NCBI GenBank assembly: GCA_951406725.2
Contig: OX597819.1
Coordinates: 41,292,001-41,356,000 of the forward strand
DNA length: 64,000 nt
DNA from: Octopus vulgaris
Taxonomy: Eukaryota
Direction of reading: 5' to 3'
Positions 5,057 through 64,000 of this stretch are shown here, one piece after another (position 1 is the stretch's first letter; each line of letters begins with the position of its first letter). Below the pieces are notes generated by a model. It worked only from the letters and a program-made list of their open reading frames with translations. It was not told the DNA's origin and searched no databases. The position numbers were made by a program, and so were the translations under genes.

Positions 5057-5652
5057 CAGTAATCCCTTGACTATAGCAGGTGTCATGTTCTAAAAACCCT
5101 TGCGATACGTGAAAATCCATGAAGTAGAAACAGTACTCATCATCATCATCATTTAACGTCCGCTTTCCATACTAGCATGGGTTGGACGGTTTAACTGGGG
5201 TTTGGGAAGCCCGAAGGCTGCACCAGGCCAGTCAGATCTGGCAGTGTTTCTACAGCTGGATGCCCTTCCTAACGCCAACCACTCCGTGAGTGTAATGGGT
5301 GCTTTTTATGTGCCACTGACACAGGTGCCAGACGAGGCTGGCGAATGGCCATGCTCGGATGGTGCTTTTTACGTGCCACCGGCACGGAGGCCAGGCGAGG
5401 CTGGCAACGGCCACGATCGGATGGTGTTTGTTACATGCCACCAGCACGGAGGCCAGTCGATGCGGTACTGGCTACGGCCATGTTCGGATGGACCTCTTAT
5501 ATGCCACGGGCACTGGTATATTTTTTAAAATTATTTTTATAATTTGTATACATTTATTTTATTATAAATGCAAAACACCACCACAGAGGAATCAGGGTAA
5601 GCTTAAATAAAAAACCACAATAGGTGAACCACGATATGGTGAGGGATTACTG
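5057..5652. mobile_element. Tc1/mariner (Tigger-like) MITE interrupted by an RTE 3' fragment
   Basis: TA-CAGTAATCCCT at the left end and AGGGATTACTG at the right end. RTE tail inserted at 5138-5517. Confidence 0.6.
5138..5517 (-). mobile_element. RTE LINE 3' UTR fragment
   Basis: Highly similar to 19741-20150, with (GAT)n tail. Confidence 0.85.
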
Positions 5653-19565: not shown

Positions 19566-19740
19566 TGTGTGAGTGGAGGGTGTTAGATTCATGATCATAT
19601 GTTTGCGATTTCAATTCCTTGACTGGGCGATGCATTGTGTTCTTAAGCAAAACACTTCATTTCACATTGCTCCAGTCCATTCAGCTGGCAAAAATGAGTA
19701 ACACTGCGATGGACTGGTGTCCCATCCAGGTGCAGAATAT

Positions 19741-20785
19741 CATCATCATCATCGTTTAACGTCCGTTCTCCATGCTAGCATGGGTTGGACGGTTCGACCG
19801 GGGATCTGGGAAGCCAGAAGGCTGCACCAGGCTCCGGTCTTATCTGGCAATGTTTCTACAGCTGGATGCCCTTCCTAACGCCAACCACTCCGTGAGTGTA
19901 GTGGGTGCTTTTTACGTGCCACCTGCACTGGTGCCAGGCGAGGCTGGCATCGGCCATGGTCGGATTGGTGCATTTTACGTGCCACCTGCACGGAAGCCAG
20001 TCGAGGCGGCACTGGCTTCGGCCACGATTCGGATGGTGCTTTTTACGTGCCACTGACACGGAAGCCAGTCAAGGCGGCGCTGGCATCAGCCACAATTCGG
20101 ATAGTGCTTTTTACGTATCTCCTGTCCAGGGGTCCTGGCATCTGCCGGGTGCCAGTCATAGGATTGGTTCAATTTCGATTCCGATTTCGATTTCACTTGC
20201 CCCAACAGGTCTTCGCAAGCAAAGGGGGTTGGCATAGGTGCCTGTCGTCGGATGAGGTTCGATATCGACTTCGCTTGCCTCAACAGGTCTTTGTGTGTCC
20301 AAGGGAGGAAAGGCATGCATAAGTGGGCTGGACTCACTTGTCCTGCCTGGTCTTTTCACGCACAGCATATTTCCAAAGGTCTCGGTCGCTGGTCATTTCC
20401 TCAGTGAGACCTAAAGTTTGAAGGTCATGCTTCACCACCTCGTCCCAAGTTTTCCTGGGTCTACATCTTCCATGGGTTCCCTCCACTGCTAGGGATTGGC
20501 ACTTTTTCACACACCTATCTTCATCCATTCTTGCCACATGACCATACCAGCGCAATCGTCTCTCTTGCACACCACAACTGATGCTCCTTAGGTTCAACAT
20601 TTCTCTCAGGGTACTAACGCTCTGTCGAGCATGCACACTGACATTACACATCCATCGGAACATACTGGCTTCATTTCTCGCGAGCTTACGCATGTCCTCA
20701 GCAGTCACGGCCCATGTTTCACTGCCATGTAGCATGGCTGTTCGTACACATGCATCATACAGTCTGCCTTTTACTCTGACTTTTA
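19741..20785 (-). pseudogene. 5'-truncated RTE-clade LINE (ORF2 C-terminus 20334-20785 plus 3' UTR with about 60-bp tandem units and (GAT)n tail)
   Basis: LYDACVRTAMLHGSETW...RRLRWYGHVARMDEDR...GRCRPRKTWDEVV...DRDLW is typical of the RTE region downstream of RT. Confidence 0.9.
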
Positions 20786-23700
20786 CTATATATATATATA
20801 TATATATATATGGAACCAACAAACCAGCCCTTGTAAGTGGGATAACTTGTAAGACATCAAGAAGATAACTTATTTGTTTTTTTATAGTCTCAATTGGTTC
20901 CACTTGGGAATGGTAATGATAGTTACTTCTGATAGGATCCTATGAAGGTGGTGCCTGAGGTCTCTACCCCCAACTCTCCTGGATGGTGAAAATGGCTGTA
21001 TGGATAAGATATAACCTTCATTTCATGTTTACTTTTGATTAGTTTCAGCTATTTCAAATTTTGATAAAAACCTACTTCTTGAAGGCAGTCAATTATTTAG
21101 GGGTGATCCATGAATTCACTTTCACCCCATCCCCACCTCCAATATGTAATGTTTGTAAAGGGCAGGCTGATTTACATGCAGATCAATAGTTAAGGTATGT
21201 TTTACTGTCTTTTAAATAGTGGTGACTGCAATGAAGACGAACTGAGATGGTCTCAGTCAACAAGGGATAAACTCAATACCTTAGAATTAACAAGGTGGTT
21301 GGCAGTCCAGCACTAAATTTGGGTTTAGTGTGACAATTGGCATCAAAGAATGTATTTTAGTTACCTGTAGGATTTGATTGATTACAGTAGATTGGAAAGA
21401 AATGGGGTAGCAATGCTGATATGGTGTGTTGTTAATGCAATTTAAGTGTTTGTAAATATGTAACCATATAGTTACAAGGATTATAACAGCTGAACTAGAC
21501 TGCACAGACATGAGCTCAATCCAGTGGAGTGGTTAGCTGTGGGAATGGCATTCTCCAACAGTAAATTATTTGGTCCTGCAACATATATGTAAATTTTCAA
21601 AAAATGTCATTGTGAAAAAATGTATAAAATTGGGAAAAATTCAATAATAATAATAAAATAGTCCTTGAGCTCTCAGATTTGAAACATTAACTATTTTGTT
21701 GGTCAGGAGTTAGTCTAATAGAACTAAATAACACTCCAGATAAATATTTACATTACACAGCAAAAGAAAAAAAAAATAAACATACACAAACACACATTCC
21801 TACATACTATATAGAGACTCACAAATATTTTGAATCAGATAACTGAATCATTAATTCAAATCCTGTAGCCAAGGTTTTTGGACAGAAGTTGTATGATTCA
21901 AGAGATTAAGCTAGAACTGGAGACAAGGAAATGAAGTTGAATCACTCTACAAACAATCCCCACCCAACAATCCCAAATCCAAAAAGAATTATTTATTATA
22001 TTTGTTTTTCAGTATAGAATAGTATTATTAATATAATACTATTTCAATATATTGTTATTGTTGTTTTGTTTTTTTTATGCTTTGATTGTAGTCATGTTTT
22101 TGGAACCAAGTCTACTGAGACTATGTGTTGAGTCTTGTCAAAGTAGAATACACAACAATTTGTAATGGACTGGAGTTAAAACATGATTTGCAATGATATT
22201 TGCTGCAGTGATCTCTTTGTTGTGTTTCTACTGAAGGGCCTCAAGTACTTTGTAGAAGGGTTGTTCTGTCTTCATGAAATGTATAGGTTTATAGAATAGT
22301 TGCTCTTTCTCTTCTTGCTCTAATCTGTTGTCAGTAAATATGCGAGAGCTAACCTAGCTTCCTGTATGGTATCTGATACACTACAAATCTTGTTTTAGAT
22401 ACCCTGTGAAGTTTCATTTCTTACAAACGTCAACCAGTGTTTTTAAAATCAAGCCATTTTGAAATTTGCAGAGTAGAGTGATCCAATTATTTTAAATTTA
22501 AAAGTAGTAGAATAAATTGGTCTAACAAGGAAACTTCCTCTCTCTCCACTACTTTGTTACACAGGCCTTGAAACGGATCATTCACTATCCTTCTGTCTCT
22601 GACTAAACTATAAAAATAAAAACCAAGAAAAATATAGTTATAGATACATAGAGGAACCCTGTTTATAAAAGGTAGTAACTTTTTAAATAAATAGGCTCGA
22701 TATAATCACTGGTTCTATTAGTGAGACATACTTTGTCTTCCATTTTTTGCTTGGTCTTCAGTTCTACGTCACTGCACAACACCTAGGGCATGTGTGTGTG
22801 TGTGCATGCACGTGCTTGTGTGTGAGTGTTTAGATTGTACATGTCTCATGACAGCATTGATCTAAATAAAAATCAGAGATGTATGTTGCCATTCCCTGCC
22901 AAAACAAAAAAAAAACACTTCTAGCAGTGTGCTTAAAGATGAATGGAATAATAAAATCCCTTATTTGTAACACAGGTAAAGACTAACGGCAAAAAGGGCA
23001 TCCAATTATAAAACATTACCTCAATAATAGGTATTCATCCAACCCATGCGATCATTGTAAAATAGATGTAAAAGCAAACAAATGAATCATAATACACTCA
23101 ACATTCAAAGTACTTACCAACATCAAAATTTCCACCTCATTCTCCCTAAACCCAGCAATTACAACAACCATAACTTTTTCTTCCTTCCCTCCTGGAATTC
23201 CCTATCTGTATATCCCAATCCAATTACTAATCATTATCAATTAAAATATCAAACTATTAACTGTTTGCTAGCCTCACCCATCTTCTACCTCTCTAATCTA
23301 AGCAGCCCTCATTAGGCTTAGTAGGATCTAATGCTATACAAGAAACTAACGACTCACACTCAATCTGCTTTTAATTTATTCATCTCATCTTGCTATCAAA
23401 CTTGTATGCCCTCATGTACTTGCAGGATGCCTACATGTGAAATAACTTCAACACAGATTTTAAGATAACCATACAGAAACTGTAGATAACATAGTTTTCA
23501 AAGAACGTCAGTTGTTTTCATTTTACACAATAGAAGTTACTGCTTCATCCTCTTTACACTATAATATCTTTACTTCATACTATATCCCTAAATAAGCTTG
23601 TGGGAAGATCTCTCTTAAGATATATCATCATTATCACGAACCTCATGACTGACTTCCCATCCCCACTACTTTTATGCTGGCCTAGATTCAATGTCATACA

Positions 23701-34624: not shown

Positions 34625-35050
34625 AATGAAAATGAAAATCGAAATCGATCAACATCAATGAAAATTGTAGCTGTGATACCAGTGCCGGTGGCATGTAAGA
34701 GAACCATCCGAACGTGACAGTTGCCATTGCCGCACCGACTGGCCTCCGTGCTGGTGGCACGTAAAATGCACCATCCGATTGTGGCCATTGCCAGCCTCGT
34801 CTGGCCCCCGTGCCGGTGACATGTAAAAAGCACCATCCAATCGTGGCCGTTTGCCAGACGAGGCTGGCACCTGTGCAGGTGGCACATAAAAAGCACCCAC
34901 TACACTCACGGAGTGGTTGGCGTTAGGAAAGGCATCCAGCTGTAGAAACATTGCCAGATTAGACTGGGCCTGGTGCAGCCTTCTGACTTCCCAGTTGAAC
35001 CGTCCAACCCATGCTAGCATGGAAAACAAACGTTAAACGATGATAATGAT
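34625..35050 (+). mobile_element. RTE LINE 3' UTR fragment
   Basis: Colinear with 28682-29092. Confidence 0.85.
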
Positions 35051-40320: not shown

Positions 40321-41411
40321 ACCTACAAAAAGAGTGCCTATACTTTGTTTAGATATTGATATGGTTGCAGGGACAACCATATTGTTAAAGTTCATTTAAC
40401 AACAGTAGGATTTTAGAGACAATCCCATTGTGAGAGGCAAGATTCTCCATTAACCCTTCTATTTTGACTTAAATCACCCACAGTATATAAGATTGCTATA
40501 CACCTATAGTGTATAACAATCTTAAAGAGAATAAGCAATAGTTCAGACCTAAATAATTTACGTTCTTTATTATTTAGTTTTAGTACTAAGCACAGACATG
40601 GCTGTGTAGTTAAAGAGTTCACAAGCATGTAGTTTAGGGTTTAGTCCAACTGTGTGGCATTTTGAGCAAGTGTCTTCCACTATGGATCCAAGCTGGCCAA
40701 TGCCTTGAGAGTGGATTTGCTAGACAGAAACTCAAAGCCAATTATGTGTGTTTACATTGTCTAAAAAGCCCATTGAGCTACAGATTATGTTGCTGTAATT
40801 TCCTCTGTCAATAGGTCATCCAATGTCTTTGCACCCAAGTAGATGTGTTGAATAAGATAAGCCTTACTTGAAAAACAAATGAAGGTTAAGCAACAAGGAC
40901 ATCTAGTTGTAAAATCATGCCTAAATAATATATTTGTCTAACCCATACTAGCTTGGAAAAAAGTACATAAAAACAAATGAATAAATTACCACAACCTGAA
41001 CCTTTCGAGAGAGATCACAGGATATGGTAAGTCACAATTCAAAGTAATTCTTCAGAATTAAAGCGAGTCATACTAAGCTACAGATTAATAGTATTATGCA
41101 GATAAGAAATCAGTCTCTGCACCTCTAGGTAAGAGGTAATAGTCTCAATCAGATACCATTTTAGTAACAACAGCTTAGTAAACTAGGGCATGTAATTTCT
41201 CAATCAATTAGGCATCCAGACAGTTAAATTAACATATAAGTGATCGAATATTCCACAGACACATATACTTTTCACATAATGATCTGATTGAATCAGTTGT
41301 GGTACAATACATAAGAAAGCTGGACCTTAGAATTGTAAGTGCAATCTGTCTCATGGATTTCCTCAGCATCCATCTTGCCAAATTTTGTTATATGGATTGG
41401 ATCAAACCAAG

Positions 41412-41526
41412 GCTTCCCCAAAATCAATCCCCTCCTCACCGTGGTGGGGACGCTGGCAACGGGTAGTGTCAGAGCTATGCCGTCGGGAACTTCGGTTCCT
41501 GGTAGGGCCACCCAAGGCGGATTGGT
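41412..41526 (+). ncRNA. Candidate HDV-like self-cleaving ribozyme
   Basis: Hand fold: P1 41412-41419/41446-41453 (one mismatch); P2 41423-41432/41516-41526 (one bulge); P3 41433-41435/41443-41445 (one U-U); L3 UCACCGU; P1.1 CA 41437-38/UG 41454-55; long P4 with a C(UUCG)G hairpin at 41485-41500; J4/2 CCAA 41512-41515. Confidence 0.6.
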
Positions 41527-41809
41527 CTGACACTGAGTGATATTAGGGCCACAACCCGGCAGACGGGGCTCTGGTGAAAATCCTCAGAGTGTCTGTTTCG
41601 GCAACCGGTGGCTCCTCGGTCGTTCTGTCCCTGCGGACAATCTGCATCAAACAGGATGTCTCTACATGCGGGATTGTTGGGGATCGCTCGTGAAATTCAT
41701 ATTCCCATGAAACTTCTTCCACTGCCATGGTTCAAGATGCCTCGAGGGTGGTGGAAGAAGCCGACTCAACTCGCCCAGGGTGAATGACGTCACAAGTGAA
41801 AGTAAGTAA
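41412..41809 (+). mobile_element. Short non-autonomous RTE-derived retroposon (398 bp) with a 5' HDV-like ribozyme and (AAGT)n tail
   Basis: Perfect 12-bp TSD GATCAAACCAAG at 41400-41411 and 41810-41821. GC-rich body in AT-rich surroundings. The 5' part (gagctatgccgt...agggccacccaaggcgg) resembles RTE/BovB 5' UTRs. It ends in caagtgaaagtaagtaa. No Pol III A/B box or RT ORF seen. Confidence 0.8.
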
Positions 41810-43677
41810 GATCAAACCAAGACTAAAGTAAAGACACTTGTCCAAGGTGTCTCACACAGTAGGATCAAAACCAGGATCCCATGATTGCAAAGCAAACTTC
41901 TTAACCACTGCCTAATACACAATAAAAAGCCTGCAATGGATTTGGAGCTTTAACACAAGATTTATTAGCTGGTAGTCCAATACATTATCTATATTAAAAT
42001 TTAACTTCTACTTACAAAAGGAGTGACTATATTTTGTTTAAACTTTGATACTGCTGCAGGCACAGCCACACTGTTATAAGTTCATTTAGCAACTATGGGT
42101 TTCAGCCTTTGCCGGTTCTTTGAGAATGTGTTCTCTATCTTAGCCTTAGGTCTACCAAAACCTTGTAAGTGAAAATTGGTTGATGGAAACAGTGTGGCAT
42201 CCAACTTCTGTTACTGGGAGGAAGATTTAATCAATCACCTCAAGAAGAGTTTCTCTCTCTAGTCTGAGCATAACTTCCTCTCCCACACCCAACAGTCTCA
42301 GAGACCTTGAAATAAAAATCATGTGTTGCTGCTCTCCTCCTCTGATCAAACAATTAAAGAAAAGAAAGGGAGAATATTGAAGAGTTAACACAGATACAAG
42401 TGACTATGGTAGGTAACAAGTGAGGAAACAGTGAATGCAGACAATTACTTTGAAGCACAAATTATAGGAAGTGAGATTTGACTTGGGCATACTACGCTTG
42501 GCTAGAGACCTTGATAATATTGAATTCAACAGCTCTAATTCCATCATGGTTTTTCTAAATCTAGAGATTATATATGTGTGTCATATAAGAAAATAGATCA
42601 CAAATATTTGTATATGTTTGGAAGCCATTCTAATGACTGTTAATGAAAAGAAAAGATTTGATATAGTGTAAAAGGAACTGGTTGCTTTGAACACTTAAAA
42701 GTGTTTGCAGTGAGAGAACTAGTATTGTTGTTAGTCTGAGATCAGAAGGGCTTCTTTTTCCTAGAGATGGCGTATACATTTGTGAGCTTTTGTAGAGAAT
42801 GAATGGTTATAAATTTTAATATGTATCTGGTTCTGGGGCACACTGTTAGAGAGACCTACATGCTTGAAGAAATGAAGTAAGAAAATAATCTAGTGAACTC
42901 AGCAACTGGCAAAATAAGAGATTAAATAAGAGAAGGTTCTAAGGTAGCAGGAATGGTAAGACAGGGAAAATTTTTTAGTGTTACAAGTGGGATAGGTGAA
43001 GAAGACAAGTAGATTGAAGTGGTGTTGACCTTGACAATGAGATGCTGTTAATAGAACCGTATTGATTGAATAGGAGAGAAAAAGAAGACTGTCTGAAGTT
43101 CATGGATAAGCATTTAGGAAATAGTCAGTGGATGGGTTGGTGGGTGTCTTTAGAATGCATGGCTGCAGCTGAGAAAGTAAAAGAGTATTTTTTGGCAGTC
43201 AGCTTGGCAATGCACTGACTGCAAGTGCATTTTGCATTCCCTATGTCTGCTTGCAGTAATGATGGGAAGTGACAGAAGATTGCCAGTTGGTATATATTAA
43301 TTGGTAGTTTCCATGCTTTGAAAGTCCTGGTTTTTGTTTTTGATCTGCTTTGTTTGTTTGTTTGTTTGTTTTTCCTAAATATTTTTTTAATGTTGTTGTT
43401 GTTGTTCACACAGCAACAACAACTGAAGAAAATTTTCAGATCAACTTACTAACATTAACCTTGTTTCTAACACTAACTCCTCTGACATTTACATACATTA
43501 TTGTTCATAACATTTATCTAAAAAAGAGTTTTAAACATGGTTATTTAGGTAAAAGTAGAAATTAACATCAATCATTAAGAGTACACACACACAGACATAC
43601 AATCTCACTGCACATTTTGAAATTACTTTAATGGTTATATTATTTTTCAGGCGCCACCATCCAAGCTGTTGCCCGCC

Positions 43678-45316: not shown

Positions 45317-45822
45317 TAGCAGGTGGATGTGCAAAACTGATGGGATGTGCACAACCAATGGCATACCCACAGCTGATGGGATAAATGCAACTGATGGGAT
45401 ATATACAGCAGATGGGATAGGCACAACTGATGACATGAGCATAGCTGGTGGGATGTGCACAGCGGATGGGATGTGCATAGCTGATTGGATGCAAACAGCT
45501 GATTGGATATGCACAACTGATGGGATATGTACAGTGGATAAGATATGCACAACTGATGGGATGAGCACATGGGATGCTCACACAGCTTTAGCATACTTGT
45601 AGCCAATAGGATATGCATGGTTGATGGGATACATGCAACTGATGGGATACACACAGCTGATGACATACATGTAGCTGATGGGATATGCACAGCTGACAGG
45701 ATATGCACAGCCAATGGGACACACACAGCTGATGTGATACATGCAGCTGATGGGGGACACACAGTTGATTGGATAAGCACAGATGACGGGATAAGTGCAG
45801 CTGATGTGATACACACAGCTGA
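45317..45822. repeat. Degenerate 18-bp minisatellite (consensus about CACAGCTGATGGGATATG), roughly 28 units
   Basis: Visible periodicity; translates as TADGIC/HPISCA hexapeptide repeats. Confidence 0.85.
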
Positions 45823-51193: not shown

Positions 51194-52516
51194 ATGGCCA
51201 GATGAAGTCACAACCTAATTAAACTTTACATACACACACATACATACATATATAAAGAAGAGAGAGAGAGAGAAAGTGTAGTTAAATAACATTATATAGA
51301 CATTTTAAGTGCTGTCAAAAGTCATGACCTTAAAATGGTAAAATCATTAGTTTGTAAAAGACAAAACCTATAGTTTTCATGAGAGTTTGAGTAGGGATGT
51401 CTTTTAGAAATATCTCACGAGTAAAATAGATTAATACAAAAAAATCTAAGCCATTCATTGAAAATATATACATGAGGAACCTGTTCTAAGCACTAGATAC
51501 AGTGGGAAGGAGAGAGAGAAAGAAAAATTTTGCACATGTGTCTATGTTTGTGTGAGGCAGCATGAGTATGTTTATGTGTGTGCATATATATGTGTATGTA
51601 TATAGGTGTATGTATGTATGTATGTATGTATAAACATATATATATATCAGCATCATTTCAAATCTATTTCCCATGCTGGCATGGGTTGGATGGTTTGACA
51701 GGAGCTGGCAAAGCCAGGAGCAACACCAGGTTCCATTGTGCTTTGGTTGGATGCCCTTCCTAATGCCATCCACCACAGAGTGTACTGGGTGCTTTTTATG
51801 TGACACCAGCACCAGTGCTTTTTATGTGGTATCATCACCAATACTTTTATGTGGCACCAGCACTAACAGGGTTATCAAGTACCTTGCAAGACAGAAACCC
51901 ATTGGTTGGGAGTGGGGAGTAGTTTTGAGGCAGGGTGGCTTTTTGCCAGCTGAGAGATTTAAGGTAAAGAGGGGACAGACATAGGTGTCTTGCTGTAGAG
52001 TAGAATGGAGAGTGAGTTTGAGAGTAAGATAAAGAGAGTGATATATGGATATACATAAATATATGTGTGTGTGTATATATATATATTTATATATATATGG
52101 ATATATACGAATGTGTGTATATATATACATACATATAGAAATGTTTGTGTGTATAGGTTTTTTTAATTCTTTTTATTTCAGTTATTAGGGATTTATAGTC
52201 AAATGAATCAATCCCAGCACATTTTTTTAAGCCTGGTACTTATTCTATCGGTCATGTTTGCTGAAAGCCAAGTTACAGGGATGTAAACACACCATTACTG
52301 GTTGGACAAACATAAGACAAGCAAAAGACACACACAGGAGACAAACAAGATACACACACACACGGTGGGCTTCTTTCAGTTTCTGTCAACCAAATCTACC
52401 CACAAGGCTTTGCTCAACCCATAGCTATGGTAGAAGACACCTGGCCAAGGTGCTACACAGTGGGACCGAACCCAGAACCACGTGGTTGGGAAGTGAGCTG
52501 CTTACCACACAGTCAC

Positions 52517-54210
52517 ATGGTGGTTGTCTACTCCTTATGCAGAGTTTGACCACCTCTTGTACCTACACCTTAGAACCATCATGGCATCTGTTGTGGCTTT
52601 ACCAGACATAGATTGCACATCCAATTTGGACCACCAAGAGCTGCAGATAAGTTCTGACCTTTGTGGATCTTAAAATGTCTTTTGAGGCCTCTGTTAGATT
52701 TGCAAACCTACTGGCATACACTGCACAAGGTGTGCACAGACATATAGGCAGAATAGTTGGTGGAGGTTCCTTTTCCCATGGGTTCGCAAATGAGATTTGA
52801 GCCCAGCAAAAGAAAGGCATGGTCTGTCACAAACTGTGCACACAAAAAGGTCATTGTCATTCACCTTTTCAATCGTAGCATTTTTCCTTAGATCTCTTTT
52901 GAGTCTTACATGTGTTATCCTGGCCTCTTCAAACACTTTCACCCCACTCCACATTTTTGCTTGCCATCCAGCTCGATCTGAAGCAAGGGTCTTTATGTTT
53001 TCTGGATCCATTCCAAGTGACTTAATAGTAGTCCTTATACCGTCCTTAAAGCTTTTTTTAGGTTTACGCCGATAGTGTTTCCCTTTAGCAAGCTCACCAT
53101 AAAACAGCTGTTTTAGCATGCGTTCATCTGCCATTCAAACAATATGGCCACACCATCTCATTTGGTTCCTCAAAATCATAGCTTTAATCGAGGTGATGCC
53201 TGAAGATGCAAGGACATCTGTGTTTGGAGTAAAAGAACTTCATTTAATGTTTAAAATGCGATGAAAGCATTTTTGGTGGAATTGTTCTAACAATTTAAAA
53301 TGCCTTTCATAACAAGTTCAAGTTCCACAAGAATACAACAGGGATGGTAAGACAAATGATTTGTAAAGAGCCAGCTTTGTATTCTTATCTATATGTCACT
53401 GGCACCAAATGCATGACTCCAAGCCACCAAATGCTTTTGCTGCCCTTTGAATTTGCAGCTGTATTTCTGTATCAAGATTTCCATCATTTTGTACAGAGCT
53501 TCTAAGGTAGATGAACGAATCAACAACCTCAAGTAACTAACCCTTCGCAAAAATTTTAGAGGGGTTACAAACAGCACCGCATGCAAGTTGATGCATTACA
53601 ACTGTGTTTTCTTTTTTTTCAAGTTGATGGTCAAGTCAAAATCAACACAAGCTAAGTCAAATGCAGATACAAGAGATTGCAGACCTGTTTCAGAATGACT
53701 GACTAGATCGCAATCATCAGCGTATAAAAGTTCCCTAATGAGTGAAGTAAAGACCTTTGTTTTGAAATTCAGTCTGGTCGGATAAAAAACATTCCCTGTT
53801 GTTCCATATTTTATGTAAATTCCCTCCTCAGACTTTTTAAAAGCATGTGACAACACAACAGCAAAGTATATTGCAAAGAAGGGTGGGTGCAAGAGGTCTC
53901 CCTGCTTTACTCCATTTTCCATGGCAAAGGATTCAGAGAGCCTCCCACCTGCAAAGCCCTAATCACGTTTACAAATTTTTCTGGACAACCTATTTTCCTT
54001 AGAATTAGCTACAGAGCATTTCGATTAACAGTATTGAACGCTTTGCTCAAATCAACAAAGCAATGATATAGAGCAAGATTCTGTTCAATGCACTTTTCTT
54101 GTAATTGTCTGATAGTAAAGATACAATCAGCTGTGCCCCTGGATGAACGAAAACCACACTGAGACTCAGACACTATATTTAGAACTATGAAAGCATTTAA
54201 ATGTTCTAAC
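52517..54210 (-). pseudogene. RTE-BovB-like LINE fragment: RT domain through C-terminal C2H2-like fingers
   Basis: QCGFRSSRGTADCIFTIRQLQEK, FVDLSKAF, NGVKQG, LLYADDCDL, RWCGHIV*MADERMLKQLFYGEL and CTVCDRPCLSFAGLKSHLRTH, with stops and frameshifts. Confidence 0.92.
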
Positions 54211-56057
54211 AAAATAAATAAATAACTACATAAATACATACATGCATGCATACATACATACATACATATACACACACACATCTTGACATCCTATGAAAGT
54301 TGTAAATGAATGTCACTGTCATACAAGCAGTGTCATTTATTTCCAATATACTACGAAAATATGTTTAGGCATGGGGAAAGATTACCTTGCTTGGAATGAG
54401 ATGAGGGATGGTGACAGGAAGGGCATCCAACAATAGAAAATCAGTCTCAAAAATACTGAATCACTAAATATTTCTAATTAGAAAAAATTAGTTGAAATGA
54501 ATAAACAAACTCATATTCAGCAAGAACAAAGATAAGTCAAGAAGAGACATAGATAGAAATAAAGCAATACAGGATAAACCTGACAAAATCTCTTCGCCTC
54601 CATCCCTTCCTGCATAACATATACTAACATACAAGTCAACAAAGCAGACATGTCTTAACTTGAAGGTATTTTATGTAAAAGCATTCAAAATATCAACATT
54701 TTTTTAAAGATACATTTAAAAAAAACTCTGAAACAAAAAGCTGTTTCACAAAGAGATTGTAATATTATTTAGACAAAAAAATATATATATATTTAGTGAC
54801 AACAAACACAATAAGGAAATTGAATAATAGGTCAACTGCTGCTCAAAATTGTACATCGTTTTGTCATCATACTGAATACAATCTACATAACAAAAATAAC
54901 AGCTAAGCTAGTAGTAACCCCATTAGAACAGCACCATGTTTACAGAAGGGATTATTATGTAAGGAATGAGCAATTATTGATTATCAAAATAGTAAATGAC
55001 ATCTATTTATCTATGTTTGCAGGAAACCCAACAACAAAAATATCTGAGAATTATAACTACAAATTAAAACTAGTTGTTATTCCTTAGATGCAAAAAAAAT
55101 CACTGGAATCAACTTTTAACTTACAAATCTACACATCCTAAATGAAAATAATACAACATTAGTAATACACGCAACAGTGAAAAACAATATTATTTCTGCA
55201 TAATAGTGAGCAAGGGGTAAATCCAGAACTTGATTTCAACCCCTAGCTCAAGAAGATATTATTATTATTATTATCATCATCATCATTATTATTAGGCGCA
55301 GGCATGGCTGTGTGGCTAGGGAGCTTGCTTCCTAGCTACATGGTTTCGGGTTCAGTCCCACCGCGTGGCACTTTGGGAAAGTGTCTTCTGCTATAGCCCC
55401 AAGCCGACCGAAGCTTTGTGATTGAATTTGGTAGGCAGAAGTTACTGCCATGTGTGTATATGTGTGTGTAGGTGCTTGTGCCTCTCTGAGAAAAACTACC
55501 CTAGGCTACTGCGTCTGGTAGGGATTTTGGTAGGGATTTTACAGCCAGATACTCTTCCTAACACCTTACACACATATATATATATATATATATATATGGA
55601 TCAAAACAGTTTAATTCAAATTCTGTATTATCTAAAGTTTCAAAGCTCATGTAGCTTATCATCAGGCAATGGAAATGCGTTGAGTGCCCTTCTTTCATTT
55701 GTCCACCCACTCTCGTATATACAGTATTATTTGGGATGCTCAGCTGTAACTACTTGAGGAAACTGAGAACATCTATGTCGTTGATGTAAACTGGCCTCAG
55801 TACTTGACTGGCACTTTATTTCTCAATACTCTAAGGATGAAAGACAAAGTTGACCTTGCTGGGATTTGAACTCAAAATATATAGGACCAAAACATATAAC
55901 ACAAGGCATTTTGTCTGATGCTTTACTAATTTTGCCAATCCACTGCTGGGACAGACCATTAAAACATGTTCAAATATTTCTACAACAATTAGGACTGGTT
56001 TGAGATAAGAAGAGTGTCGTAAAACTTCTTGCTTAAATAATTCACTGGCACAATTCC

Positions 56058-56301
56058 ATATCTCTAACTATTTCAATCCTTGATTGTAATAAAAATTGGA
56101 CATATGAGTTAAATTACTATAAAATTATAGATTAAATAGGTCACCATCACCAGAAACAACCTGAGACATGTTTTACTTTATATCTCTAACTATTTCAATC
56201 CTTGATTGTAATAAAAATTGGACATATGAGTTAAATTACTATAAAATTATAGATTAAATAGGTCACCATCACCAGAAACAACCTGAGACATGTTTTACTT
56301 T
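56058..56301. repeat. Perfect tandem duplication of a 122-bp unit
   Basis: 56058-56179 appears identical to 56180-56301. Confidence 0.9.
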
Positions 56302-59203: not shown

Positions 59204-61905
59204 TCATATATAAAAATTAACTACATATGTGGAAAAATTGGTGTGTGTTTGTGGCGTTTTTAGCTAACTACTCCTACATCGTTTTATTGAGTTTGATGAA
59301 ACTTGACATGTGAGTAGAACGCATGTCTGGAAACCTCATGATATACATATTTGAAAAAATTGATAATAAAGCCCCTGGAAGGGACCTTTATACCTCATAT
59401 AACTAATTATTTTTCAAAACACCCAAGGGAAATAACTCATAGCACCTGCACAATATTTTTTTTAAACACTCAAGGGAAATAACACATTTCATTGTTTATG
59501 TTCGATTACTTTGAATATTGATTTTTTTGTGTGTCCAATTTCTAATTTTTGCAGACAATATCACTTTTATACTCTATTTGACACTTGAGTAGAACTCATG
59601 TCTGGAAACCTCGTGACATACTTAGATTGTTGAAAAAAAAATTGATAATAGGGCCCTTCCAATGGATCCTTCTATCTACTACATATTACTAATATTTTAT
59701 TTAAACAATCCAAGGGTAATAACCCATACCACCTGCAGTCTTTAGCAAAGCGATCAATATTTCATTCTCTCGATCAACCGACCTAATTCTGCATTTCGCT
59801 ACTCATAGTTTTGAACTGCTAAACATTATTATCGCACTTCTTTAATTTGAATCTTAAACCTTAAAGACTTCATTCATACATTTCTATACAAACATACTTT
59901 TTTGAATGCCCATTACTCTGATAATTCTGCCTTTTACAGTTACACTTTTTCCATGACAGTAGATAAATTTTTTTTTTCCACAATGTATTTGTAGCGGCTT
60001 CATGCAGGCATAGCGTGGATTCGATCCTCAATTACCAAATTTCCCTTAACACTTCAACAGCGCTTTTCACACAGTAAAACAATAGTTTTTCTGTGAATGA
60101 CAGTAGTTGTACATTTCCTAGATGCCTTCATTAAGCAGAATAATGTCTTTGCCACTTGACCCTTCTAACCTCTTCTAGGCCACCAGGGACTGGAATGGAG
60201 ATAACAGACCTCCAACAAAATCATTTGTTCTCAACAATATGTTTTATCCTTCTGGCTGCTTTTCGATAATTATAAAAACAAGAACTCCTGTAAGCTAAAG
60301 GCAGTTACTGAGAGCAACCATCAGTGAGTGTGAATGTTATTATCCCCACAATGAATCATCAAGTGCCTATTGGCAAAATGAATGCTGTTTGTTCTTATTG
60401 CAAGGATCTAAAACGGCCAAATGAAACTCCTTCTATATGCTGCTTCAAAGGCAGTATGAGGCTGGTCAGACAGCAAGATCCACCAGATGTATTACTGCAG
60501 CTTCTTCTACAAAACACTCCCGATGATATCAATTTCCATCATAAAATATGGAAATACAACGCATCCTTCATGATGACATCATTCGGTGCTGAGGGTGAGT
60601 TCACCCGACAAGGTCACTTTTCAACTTTCAAAATGAGGGGTCAATGCTATCATTCAGTAGGAGCCTAAGACCATTACCAGATGCAGAGTCGAAATTTGTC
60701 CAGGTGTATTCTATGGGCGGTGACGATGAGTAAGTTGACCAATGGTGCAGGCTGAATGAAGGTGTTGACAAACGTTTGATTGCAAAATTACAGACAATGT
60801 TTCATTCAACTCATACCTATGTGAATAGCTTGAAATGTGCTCTAGAGAGGATGGATGAGCTGCCTGATCTCAGTCATCCACTGAGTGCAAATTGATCATT
60901 ACTCCTTGATCAGTACTCCTTGCAGATGACTTTCTACAAACACTCCCAGTCGTTCCAAAGGGGACAAGAGCATATGAGGTAAATGTGAGAATCAAATCTT
61001 CATACCTTTGGAGCAAGGTTAGAAAGTTGAAACTCACAACAAACACTAGAGTGCAGTTAGGTGGTGATGTGCACATGAAATGCTGTTAATCATTTTGTCT
61101 GAAAAAAAAAATGTAAAGGCGGTGAGCTGGCAGAAACATTAGCATGCTGGGTGAAATGCTTAGCAGTATTTCGTCTGCTGCTACGTTCTGAGTTCAAATT
61201 CCACCAAGGTCAACTTTGCCTTTCATCCTTTCAGGGTCGATAAATAAAGTACAAGTTTCACACAGGGGTCGATGTAATCGACTTAATCCCTTTGTCTGTC
61301 CTTGTTTGTCCCCTCTATGTTTAACCCCTTGTGGGCAGTAAAGAAATAGATGTGCACATGGAGAACTTCTACAGGCAATTAATGGATATTGGAACTGGTG
61401 CTGTAATTGTTGAGCAGAAGGGGAAGATTAGTTTACCCTTTGGCAATTTGGTGTCAAATATACATGAACTATTGGCGAGAGTTTTCCCTAATCTGAACAC
61501 ACGATTCACAGACCACTGTTGGCTGAGAAAACATGCAATTTTGGTGCCAAAAAATGTTGCAGTCGATGGCGTAAACAATCACCTTCTGGAACAACTACCT
61601 GGCAATCGTCGCACATACAAGTCAATTGATACTGTGCTCCACACCAGTGATGCTGTTCATTACCCCATTGAATTCCTCAATAGCCTTGCACCTTCAGGTC
61701 TTCTACCACATGAATTTCATCTAAAGGTTGGAGCCCCAGTTATGCTTTTAAGAAGTCTCGATCCCCCAAAATTATGCAATGGCATGAGATTTGCCAACCT
61801 CCAACAATCTCTCTCTCCTCCAGCTGACAGCTTTTTGTACATTTTCATGATGGAAAATACACCTTTTGTGGCGTTTATAACGAAATTGCTTTCTTATATC
61901 AGAGT
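59204..61905 (+). mobile_element. Internally deleted Helitron inserted in a SINE
   Basis: 5' TC-ATATATAAAA start. N-terminal CSYC...SICC...YNASFMMTSFG...FKMRGQCYHSVG (60324-60870). PIF1-like helicase pieces PVVPKG...IKSSYLW...LTTNTRV (about 60945-61077) and AILVPKN...YPIEFLNSLAPSGLLPHEFHLKVGAPVMLLRSLDPPKLCNG (61361-61795). No HUH Rep domain or 3' CTAG hairpin seen. Confidence 0.85.
61116..61348 (+). mobile_element. SINE family B inserted in the Helitron helicase region
   Basis: 12-bp direct repeat GATGTGCACATG at 61066-61077 and 61349-61360. Confidence 0.85.
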
Positions 61906-64000
61906 AATAAGGCATTTGTCCCTACCACTGCTTCATAACCAGCGCTGATGTGTCTATGTCCCCATAACTTAGCAGTTCAGCAAAAGAGGCCGATAGAATA
62001 CGTATCAGTCTTAAAAAAATAGGTAAGTACTGGGGTTGATTTGACTAAAAATTCAAGGTGGTGCCCCAGCATGGCCACAGTCTAATGACTGAAACTAAAA
62101 GTTAAGTGACAAAAGATATCACATAAAACATTGTACTAGATCAAGTATCCATAAATATTCATATGATCTTATCTTCCTCATTATCTTGAAAGATAAGAAT
62201 TTTGGTTAACCCGGCTACTTGCAGAAATCTGATATATTCACTCAAAATTCCATTGCTTATAACTGTGGAGAGAAGTTTTATATACCAATCTATCTTTTGT
62301 CAAGTTTATTAAAGCAATGTGACTTGTAGAAAATAGTTTTACTTTTATTCATTTTTATAGCTGGAATAACCATGAAATTTAATTTCACAGTTAAAAGGTT
62401 AACACAATAAAACTAGAAATTAGTAGGAATTATATAAAATATTAAAACATTTTGTATAATTTCTATCAATTTCAAGTTTCTACAAGCTCGGAAACTAAAC
62501 CTTTTACCTAGAAGGATGATAACCTATTAGATAACAAATTAGCATACCTAACTGCACATGACACTAATTTCCAGCCGGATAACTCTGATTAGATGTACAT
62601 GAGCAGAGAAATGACACAAATGCAGTCAACAGATTAACATTTGATTAACCTATCAAGTAACAGTGCATATTCTCCTATTTATTTTATTCCAATTCTCATA
62701 TTAGAGGTGATTACACAGGTCAGATGAAAATCAGTGAAGCAGGTTTTCTACAGTTGGATACTTTTCCTGTTGCTAACCTTCACTTGTTTCCAAGCAAGGT
62801 AATATTTGTCCAAGTCCTCTGAACACAAACAACACAATGGCCAGTAATGTTTTCATGGAAGTTTGCAGACAAGCACCGCTAGTATGATTGTGACATTTGT
62901 TTACAACTGGTGCATGATGTGAAGCTAAAATGTACCTGCACGCACACACACACACACACACACGATAGGCTTCCTACATTTTCCACTCACAAGGCTTTGG
63001 TCAGTTCAGGCTACAGAAGAAGTCACTCATACAAAATGCTGTGCAGTGGGAATGAACCCTGAAACAATGTTGTCAAGTGAGATTCTTAACCACACAACCA
63101 AGCCTGTGCCAAAACAGAATATGGAACTGAGTTTTGCATCTTGTCTTTAATCTTTGATACAGTAATCAGCAATATTACATCATGGCAAATGCAAAAGATA
63201 AAAAAATGTTAATATGATTTATAGCCAGATATTTCAAAATACGAACAACAGCAACACTGTTCCTTAGCAACAATATCAGCATAATCCTTCAATGTAGGAC
63301 CAACATTAGATTATTTCTTGAACACTTACTCTTCTCCCTCCTCACATCTCTCTCTGCTGTCAATTGTTGGTTATTCATAGTTATTCAACCACAACCATCC
63401 AGACATCCCTTTGAAGGTATAAGTATGCATAATCACAAAGGCTGATTGCAACAGGGGTTTTTTTCTTTTTCTTTTTTTTTTTTTCGTTTAGCTTTGCTAG
63501 CTTTTGTAAGTTACTAACAGCACTCCATCAGGGAGCTGCAAATGTTTCTCAGTTGCAATAACAGGTCAAAAAAAAGGGTGTGAGTTGTGGTCCCTGCTTA
63601 TCACATACATACATAAATACCAAATACAACAAAAGGTACAAATTCAAGAAGTCATATTCCAATACCTTTGCTTTGCTTTATATCACACTATACCAATCTC
63701 TGAGACTGACACTGACATTGACACATACACACGCACACGTATATTTTCATGCTTTGTATGCAGACATGGTTTGGACAGGTTATCACAGTCCAAGTCAGTT
63801 CTTATTTAAAGTTACTGCACTCCTAGATTGGTAGGAGGACCATATCATGGTTTGTTTTATATGGCAGTATGCATTTCCTGCCACCAACCTCTTTATAAGA
63901 GTTATAGAGTGCATATGTTCACAGCACTATCACTAGAGATTTTGTCATATTCTTGGACAAAACTACAGAGTCACAAACACACACACATTAGTGCCCAGCT

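Follow-up and report, generated by a model that had tools for sequence, protein, structure and literature searches.

A bipartite RTE-type retroposon of Octopus vulgaris with a predicted HDV-like ribozyme at its 5' end

Introduction

Short, non-autonomous retroposons whose 5' end bears a ribozyme similar to that of hepatitis delta virus (HDV) are known from flies and trypanosomes. Here, we describe a 398-nucleotide (nt) element of this kind, at 41412..41809 on the + strand of a 64,000-nt stretch of Octopus vulgaris DNA (contig OX597819.1, positions 41,292,001 to 41,356,000; hereafter the window, to whose positions all coordinates refer). The element is a dispersed retroposon that sequence comparison traces to the two ends of an RTE-type long interspersed nuclear element (LINE), and its head is predicted to fold as an HDV-like ribozyme. 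A first-pass annotation of the window, made from the sequence alone, knew of no such element in cephalopods. This overstated the novelty: the kind of element has been described (PMC3414825, PMC3185411, PMC4035085, and PMC5786205; these and the other papers are cited for the parts of their text at hand), and it represents no new class of element or ribozyme.

The R2 SIDE and R2/R1 SIDE elements of Drosophila (Eickbush and Eickbush 2012, PMC3414825) are likewise non-autonomous and combine a 5' HDV-like ribozyme with a LINE 3' end. They depend on the protein of the full-length element, and their ribozymes are proven to cleave, whereas cleavage of the octopus head is predicted. SIDEs reside at low copy in 28S rDNA and are cut from the rRNA co-transcript; in contrast, the octopus element is dispersed in hundreds of copies, appears to descend from an RTE of the APE type, and retains the 310-nt 5' untranslated region (UTR) in full. 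The NARTc, RIME, and SIDER elements of trypanosomatids are also short, dispersed, and non-autonomous and bear the ribozyme-containing head of a LINE (PMC3185411, PMC4035085). NARTc cleaves at +1 (PMC3185411), and L1Tc has target-site duplications (TSDs) of ~12 bp (PMC6765202). These elements belong to the Ingi/L1Tc clade and have a compact 77-nt ribozyme with a one-pair P1.1 and promoter activity, whereas the octopus element probably belongs with the RTE clade and has a 163-nt predicted fold with a two-pair CA/UG P1.1 and a branched P4.

Closest in construction are the bipartite RTEs RTE-N2_Lch, RTESINE1/2, WALLSI3, and Bov-A (Kojima 2018, PMC5786205), in which internal deletion has joined an RTE 5' part to the 3' end (214 + 70 bp in RTE-N2_Lch versus 310 + 88 in the octopus element). 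Kojima observes that the LINE 5' end is retained in bipartite elements and suggests that the RTE ribozyme may be the reason; the text examined neither derives a fold for them nor mentions an octopus member. In Ceph-SINEs, pieces of an RTE 5' UTR follow a tRNA head (PMC5786205), whereas the octopus element has no tRNA head. In RTE ribozymes (Ruminski et al. 2011, as cited in PMC6765202 and PMC5786205), an HDV-type double pseudoknot likewise forms the 5' end of an RTE with a single open reading frame (ORF), and the ribozymes are proposed to release the RNA from host co-transcripts. The octopus heads of families A to C, introduced below, are set apart by a CA/UG P1.1, a U-U in P3, and a 90-nt insert in P4. 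Finally, RTE-2_OV, an RTE-clade LINE expressed in octopus brain (PMC9115989), has a single ORF like the parent described here, which is probably of the same clade, but encodes 1109 amino acids (aa) with a C2H2 finger and has UTRs of ~600 nt, whereas our parent has no terminal finger and a 9-nt 3' UTR. Judged by titles and the openings of abstracts, we found no cephalopod HDV-like ribozyme or bipartite RTE in the literature, although Repbase, Dfam, or the repeat library or supplement of PMC13282606 may already hold the family; the word "ribozyme" occurs 0 times in the main texts of PMC13282606 and PMC9115989.

Results

A dispersed retroposon with a common 5' start

As first annotated, the element is GC-rich and flanked by an exact 12-bp direct repeat, and G41412 is the base directly after the left TSD. 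GC content is 0.55 within the element versus 0.33 and 0.38 in its flanks. It was found once in the window. A DNA search of the genome (2.8 Gb, 227 contigs) returned 1590 candidates; with 40 scored, 39 non-self matches were 90-93% identical over nearly the full length. Exact-pattern counts gave 187 occurrences of the family's 21-nt 5' end and 95 of the internal junction of the window copy's subfamily, with 0 for the reversed-pattern control in both cases. Thus, the suggestion that the element is multi-copy was borne out. Among 108 distinct copies, 47 have recognizable TSDs, all of them different (8-16 bp, mode 12), whereas swapped-flank controls gave a TSD in 0/430. Short copies differ by 1-6% from their own majority sequence. 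The window copy, a member of the 403-nt subfamily of what we call family A, is 4.5% off its subfamily majority, lacks 6 nt after 41630, and ends in just two to three AAGT-like units. Its insertion is present in contigs of X18 and X19; no empty insertion site was found among the public-run contigs.

Several observations place the 5' end at G41412 across copies. First, nt 1-13 are reached by 20/30 copies chosen by their 3' end and by 24/30 chosen by an internal piece. Second, the +1 base is G in 46/66 copies, and at upstream positions the most frequent base reaches at most 31/66. Third, the left TSD ends at nt -1 to 3 in 39/45 copies. Fourth, similarity is lost at the same 5' point in contigs of three public runs (42, 42, and 36 contigs). 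Lastly, in seven copies a 5' fragment precedes a new start at nt 1-2, and at locus L249 (G000:C2:189320200-189320520) ~13 tandem units of element nt 1-25 lie ahead of a short copy. Such double starts and arrays are what an RNA with a discrete 5' end should produce, and they fit a reverse transcriptase (RT) that would run off that end and jump back. Hence, the element is a dispersed retroposon with hundreds of copies that share the G41412 start, as had been proposed.

No tRNA head was detected in the element. In copy L004 there is no RNA polymerase III (Pol III) A box, and B-box-like matches occur only at chance level; an Rfam scan of the locus gave a sole match, a chance CRISPR-repeat outside the element. 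This is in line with the proposal that no Pol III promoter is needed. A separately derived short interspersed element (SINE) is not supported: instead of a small-RNA-derived head with Pol III boxes, as in SINEs including Ceph-SINEs, the head is LINE 5' UTR from nt 1.

The element joins the two ends of an RTE-type LINE

Sequence comparison shows that the element arose by internal deletion from an RTE-type LINE of this genome, whose own two ends it joins. Element nt 1-310 match the 5' UTR of six LINE copies at 86-92% identity, and nt 311-398 match the 3' end of the same six copies at 84-89%. A 505-nt subfamily holds 103 nt extra, readable as an ORF C-terminus, and a search with its peptide returned P0001, a 1035-aa protein with endonuclease and RT domains (75% identical), which then served as the query that located LINE copies in the genome. 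One of these, L151, is a full-length LINE with the head, a broken endonuclease-RT frame, and the tail; it is flanked by a 12-bp TSD of its own that contains one mismatch. Neither the RTE fragments in the window nor the intact L150 family has the element's ends.

The parent layout comprises one ORF (APE + RT), no ORF1, a 9-nt 3' UTR, and a tandem tail. In L151, the APE domain starts ~110 nt past the first AUG of the ORF, which leaves no room for an ORF1. RTE-X elements have a separate ORF1 ahead of the APE-RT ORF. The LINE partner sharing both ends, which the first-pass annotation had assigned to RTE(-X), was thus found as an RTE-type LINE, but its single ORF without ORF1 indicates RTE rather than RTE-X; the architecture fits the RTE clade. 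Relatives of the parent carry the name CFDP2-like, and CFDP2 contains a Bov-B RTE endonuclease. A PDB search matched only L1 and R2 proteins.

The element was first described as non-coding. It indeed has no coding capacity, but 41724-41783 are what is left of the LINE ORF's C-terminal end, including its stop codon. Aligning the 108 distinct family-A copies separated junction types of ~376 nt (8 copies), 373 nt (4), 409 nt (4), and 505 nt (30) from the 403-nt type, whose junction has the 95 exact matches given above, against 72 candidates for the LINE interior in the genome. Additional junctions occur in a second family, B (see below); several of the A and B types cluster near nt 311-345, and every type retains the 5' UTR as far as roughly the first AUG. 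Many dispersed copies thus share one junction and have distinct TSDs.

The head is predicted to fold as an HDV-like ribozyme

An HDV-like fold at the 5' end is well supported by comparative modeling, and self-cleavage 5' of G41412 is likely on that basis. The five helices P1, P1.1, P2, P3, and P4 are present in nested double-pseudoknot order (Table 1). P1 opens with a G41412-C41453 pair in family A, and L3 holds the conserved U and a CG, the window copy having C41440. In J4/2, CAGA at 41560-41563 fits the CRRA of a published descriptor (PMC6326823).

The first-pass annotation had already drawn P1, P3, L3, and P1.1 in this way. However, it closed the fold within 115 nt, with CCAA as J4/2 and C41512 as the catalytic base, and these features, as well as its P2, need revision. 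CCAA does not fit the CRRA descriptor and sits inside P4, the interior of which is missing from compact relatives. In 23 real copies, our P2, whose 3' strand contains GGGG at 41565-41568, is paired in 94.6-98.6% of cells versus 75.5% for the earlier P2 (reconstructed from its description), and constrained folding makes the revised P2/P4 more stable by 5-13 kcal/mol. The P4 domain also appears in the free fold of the family A and B majority sequences. On the window + strand, a descriptor of our own selects a single site, G41412 with C41560; in 20000 shuffles, it gave 19 matches anywhere and 1 at nt 1-2, an optimistic figure, as this descriptor was made after the sequence was known. On genome copies, it selects the same C in 20/52 of family A, 6/18 of family B, and 2/4 of family C, and no other C. 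The C41512U control proposed earlier would change a peripheral P4 base. C41518 (CGGA), another candidate for the catalytic C, was rejected; it lies inside P4 and is missing in compact relatives.

The core of the window copy is intact, but pairs are broken in P1 (at 41414), in distal P2 (at 41426), and in a hairpin of P4 (at 41540). P1 mismatches reduce the activity of R2 ribozymes (PMC3774820), and by this precedent the predicted ribozyme of the window copy is probably impaired. Partial inactivation had been suspected from the mismatch in an 8-bp P1 and from the U-U pair. The P1 length and the U-U are not decay of this copy, since that P1 length is family-A-wide and the U-U occurs in families A to D; only the P1 mismatch at 41414 is copy-specific.

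We also noted that 16/31 non-junction deletions of at least 5 nt overlap element nt 140-175 (window 41551-41586), that is, J4/2 and the 3' strand of P2, where RT would first encounter the pseudoknot. The excess may be only ~twofold, because the copy sets were selected by other regions.

The fold is conserved in five head lineages

Two sister RTE families, B (47 exact matches) and C (12 matches), have the same head with a different P1 sequence, and comparing A, B, and C showed the 5' half of the earlier fold to be correct and its 3' half to be wrong. Short bipartite copies with several junctions exist in B and C too (L161-L190 and L205-L216). In 5/12 family-C matches, other sequence stands in place of the first ~20 head bases, so that the P1 5' strand is lost; four of the five have one and the same ~170-nt sequence there.

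To search for and align homologues, we built a covariance model without P2 and P1.1. It retrieved two compact homologues, both without the interior of P4. The first, L217, lies upstream of an RTE-like ORF and comes from record RCNI01045407.1, outside the octopus genome; the second, family D, lies within it. The head of family D has G1-U, CC/GG, GCAA, and GGCAAA, and 10/14 fetched copies begin at that G. Outside relatives comprised two loci from metagenomes, of which L217 was the useful one, and one from prokaryote genomes; none came from viral contigs.

We then aligned 22 heads from the five lineages (A, B, C, D, and L217). C41560, a purine at 41562, and A41563 are each present in 22/22, with 41561 variable; in L3, U41436 is present in 22/22 and G41441 in 21/22. 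By contrast, the CCAA stretch is missing in 10/22 heads and absent altogether from two lineages. Core pairs are paired in 95.9% of 390 cells, versus 32-54% in slid controls. Double-sided changes occupy 50 cells, versus 16.8 in shuffles and above all 500 of them, and fall in P1 (4 pairs), P1.1, distal P2, and P4. The covariation sought in P1, P2, and P1.1 was thus found: A-U is exchanged for C-G in P1.1 and C-G for U-A in distal P2, two helices that the alignment model did not include. Moreover, in families A to D the 5' boundary tracks the P1 strand despite differing P1 sequences, the family-C boundary resting on few copies.

A number of observations weigh against this reading of the element. 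With respect to covariation, pairs with double changes are no more numerous than in shuffles (148/500 reach their number, or 49/500 in a second comparison), the cells are not independent events as the copies are related, and no double change occurs in the four proximal pairs of P2 or in either pair of P3. With respect to the motif, families B and C begin with C and A in place of the G that opens a G1-Y pair. P1 has 8 bp in family A, or the seven pairs of the published descriptor with G41446 assigned to P3. In families A to D, P3 consists of two pairs and a U-U rather than three pairs, which are present in L217, and one extra base follows C-N-R-A relative to the published descriptor. P1.1 is CA/UG in A to C, not the two C-G pairs that the published descriptor asks for, which are found in D and L217; we consider CA/UG a variant feature, since active L1Tc has a one-pair P1.1 (PMC3185411). 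In Rfam scans, the window head and copy L004 gave no ribozyme match at E<=1, and family-D copy L263 matched RF00094 at 40.2 bits (E 0.0024), short of the family's gathering score, which is 50. When a program without pseudoknot capability folds the sequence freely, the minimum-energy structures contain P1 and P4 and not P2, and our descriptor also gives one site on the window - strand, which is at chance level. Many 5' ends are ragged, with exact alignment from nt 1 in only 9/30 (3'-chosen) and 12/30 (internal-chosen) copies. Each of the five family-A LINE copies examined is broken, the longest open frames spanning 183-415 aa, and no intact family-A LINE appeared among 44 scored of 64786 candidates (a stricter first pass) or 40 scored of 72; the family therefore looks dormant.

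Table 1. Coordinates of the element, its predicted ribozyme, and side-observation loci
Feature	Position	Strand	Remarks
Whole bipartite non-autonomous RTE derivative	41412..41809	+	403-nt subfamily of family A
Left target-site duplication	41400..41411	+	12 bp, same as 41810-41821
Predicted HDV-like ribozyme	41412..41574	+	163 nt; predicted cleavage 5' of G41412
P1 5' strand	41412..41419	+	pairs 41446-41453; copy-specific mismatch at 41414
P2 5' strand	41425..41432	+	CCCC 41429-41432 pairs GGGG 41565-41568; distal three bases pair 41572-41574
P3 and L3	41433..41445	+	two C-G pairs plus U-U; L3 41436-41442, conserved U41436 and G41441
P1 3' strand	41446..41453	+	
P1.1 3' strand UG	41454..41455	+	pairs CA 41437-41438
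J1.1/4 GCAA	41456..41459	+	
Branched P4, 90-nt domain	41460..41558	+	base 41460-41464 with 41554-41558
P4 long stem	41466-41478 with 41521-41533	+	
P4 UUCG hairpin	41482-41503	+	
P4 small hairpin	41537-41552	+	
J4/2	41559..41564	+	predicted catalytic C41560, C-N-R-A pattern
P2 3' strand	41565..41574	+	
Remaining RTE 5' UTR	41575..41721	+	ends at A of the LINE's first AUG; element nt 1-310 match six LINE copies at 86-92%
RTE 3' end	41722..41809	+	last 19 ORF codons + stop, 9-nt 3' UTR, tail; 84-89% match, translation
Relic LINE ORF C-terminus and stop codon	41724..41783	+	
Tandem-repeat tail	41793..41809	+	
Right target-site duplication	41810..41821	+	12 bp
Side-observation locus	L149:4788-4879	+	
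Side-observation loci	L255-L268		range includes family-D copy L263

Discussion

The bipartite origin, the TSD-marked dispersal, the common 5' start, and the conserved fold lead us to consider it probable that the element is a bipartite RTE derivative that is freed by its own 5' HDV-like ribozyme and mobilized in trans by LINE protein. First, as the junctions show, internal deletions joined the LINE ends. This happened five times or more in family A and recurred in family B, and each time the 5' UTR to about the first AUG was spared. Second, a copy would be transcribed by RNA polymerase II (Pol II), most likely through host read-through. Third, self-cleavage with C41560 as the predicted general acid would yield an RNA that starts at G1. 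Fourth, as the shared tail and the TSDs suggest, the LINE endonuclease/RT would bind the 3' end in trans, and a new copy would be inserted via target-primed reverse transcription.

The alternative that survives best accepts the same bipartite element but has its 5' end set by an internal Pol II promoter that starts at G1. The fold of families A to C would then be an inherited relic, a protein-binding, packaging, or translation-initiation structure that cuts poorly or never. The non-canonical P1.1, P3, and first bases of A to C are what such a relic might show, as is the 90-nt P4 domain, which was gained and conserved in A to C and is dispensable for cleavage. There is precedent as well: the L1Tc head is promoter and ribozyme both (PMC3185411), and, according to Kojima, bipartite LINEs should be transcribed by Pol II (PMC5786205). 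Nevertheless, we regard this alternative as unlikely. The C, R, and A of J4/2, with a variable base among them, and the U and G of L3 persist throughout the five lineages, and a promoter does not explain a 5' boundary that tracks the P1 strand in four families with different P1 sequences.

Much less probable still is that the short copies are dead-on-arrival by-products of RT template skipping or DNA-level duplication, never retrotransposed as short RNA. A recurrent skip predicts several junction types clustered near nt 311-345, as seen in A and B, but it would have to account for one exact junction in 95 dispersed copies against 72 LINE-interior candidates, and the 47 different TSDs exclude DNA duplication. 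Finally, we give very little credence to the compact 115-nt fold (CCAA, C41512) as the active ribozyme: CCAA followed by GG is invariant in the A, B, and C majority sequences and a bulged P2 can be drawn, but CCAA is missing from heads that retain the rest of the core, its P2 pairs less often and at an energetic cost, and our descriptor never selects it.

The findings have several implications. Covariation over five lineages supports Kojima's suggestion that a 5' ribozyme stands behind the recurrent bipartite parasites of RTE LINEs that lack a Pol III head. The heads would form a natural series, from the near-textbook HDV-like head of family D to the variants of A to C with a CA/UG P1.1 and a large P4. 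The minimal cis sequence for RTE mobilization would be ~370 nt. In addition, the predicted catalytic residue is corrected, and the assay as first proposed would mislead. A broader reading, which we hold to be doubtful, is that these heads represent a genome-wide clade of non-canonical HDV-like ribozymes, marked by the A-U of P1.1, the U-U of P3, and the newly acquired branched P4 of 90 nt. The clade would be carried by dispersed mini-RTEs of many origins, hundreds to a few thousand in number, that outnumber their parents. Many sense copies might then still cut host pre-mRNAs, and the gained P4 might be a packaging or switch element through which these RNAs out-compete the LINE.

Other elements in the window and genome

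L150 and L250-L252 form a separate RTE family with intact ~1095-aa frames in several copies, similar to RTE-2_OV in length and C-terminal finger. Hand folding gives the 5' end of the L150 family an HDV-like shape with an unusual L3, which our descriptor did not match.

In the window, 98/177 of the longer open frames were scanned against Pfam and yielded transposon domains only. A 5'-truncated RTE-1-like LINE end with a (GAT)n tail occupies 19740-20939 (-); its 3' UTR contains 62-68-bp tandem repeats that also occur at 5298-5491, 34723-34897, and 51789-51863. A broken RTE-like RT fragment with a C-terminal zinc finger lies at 52697-54290 (-), and its ends are unrelated to those of the element. 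A Pif1 helicase fragment, likely from a Helitron, is found at 61325-61948 (+). An 18/36-bp tandem array spans 45325-45822, and a perfect 122-bp tandem duplication is present in two copies at 56058-56301.

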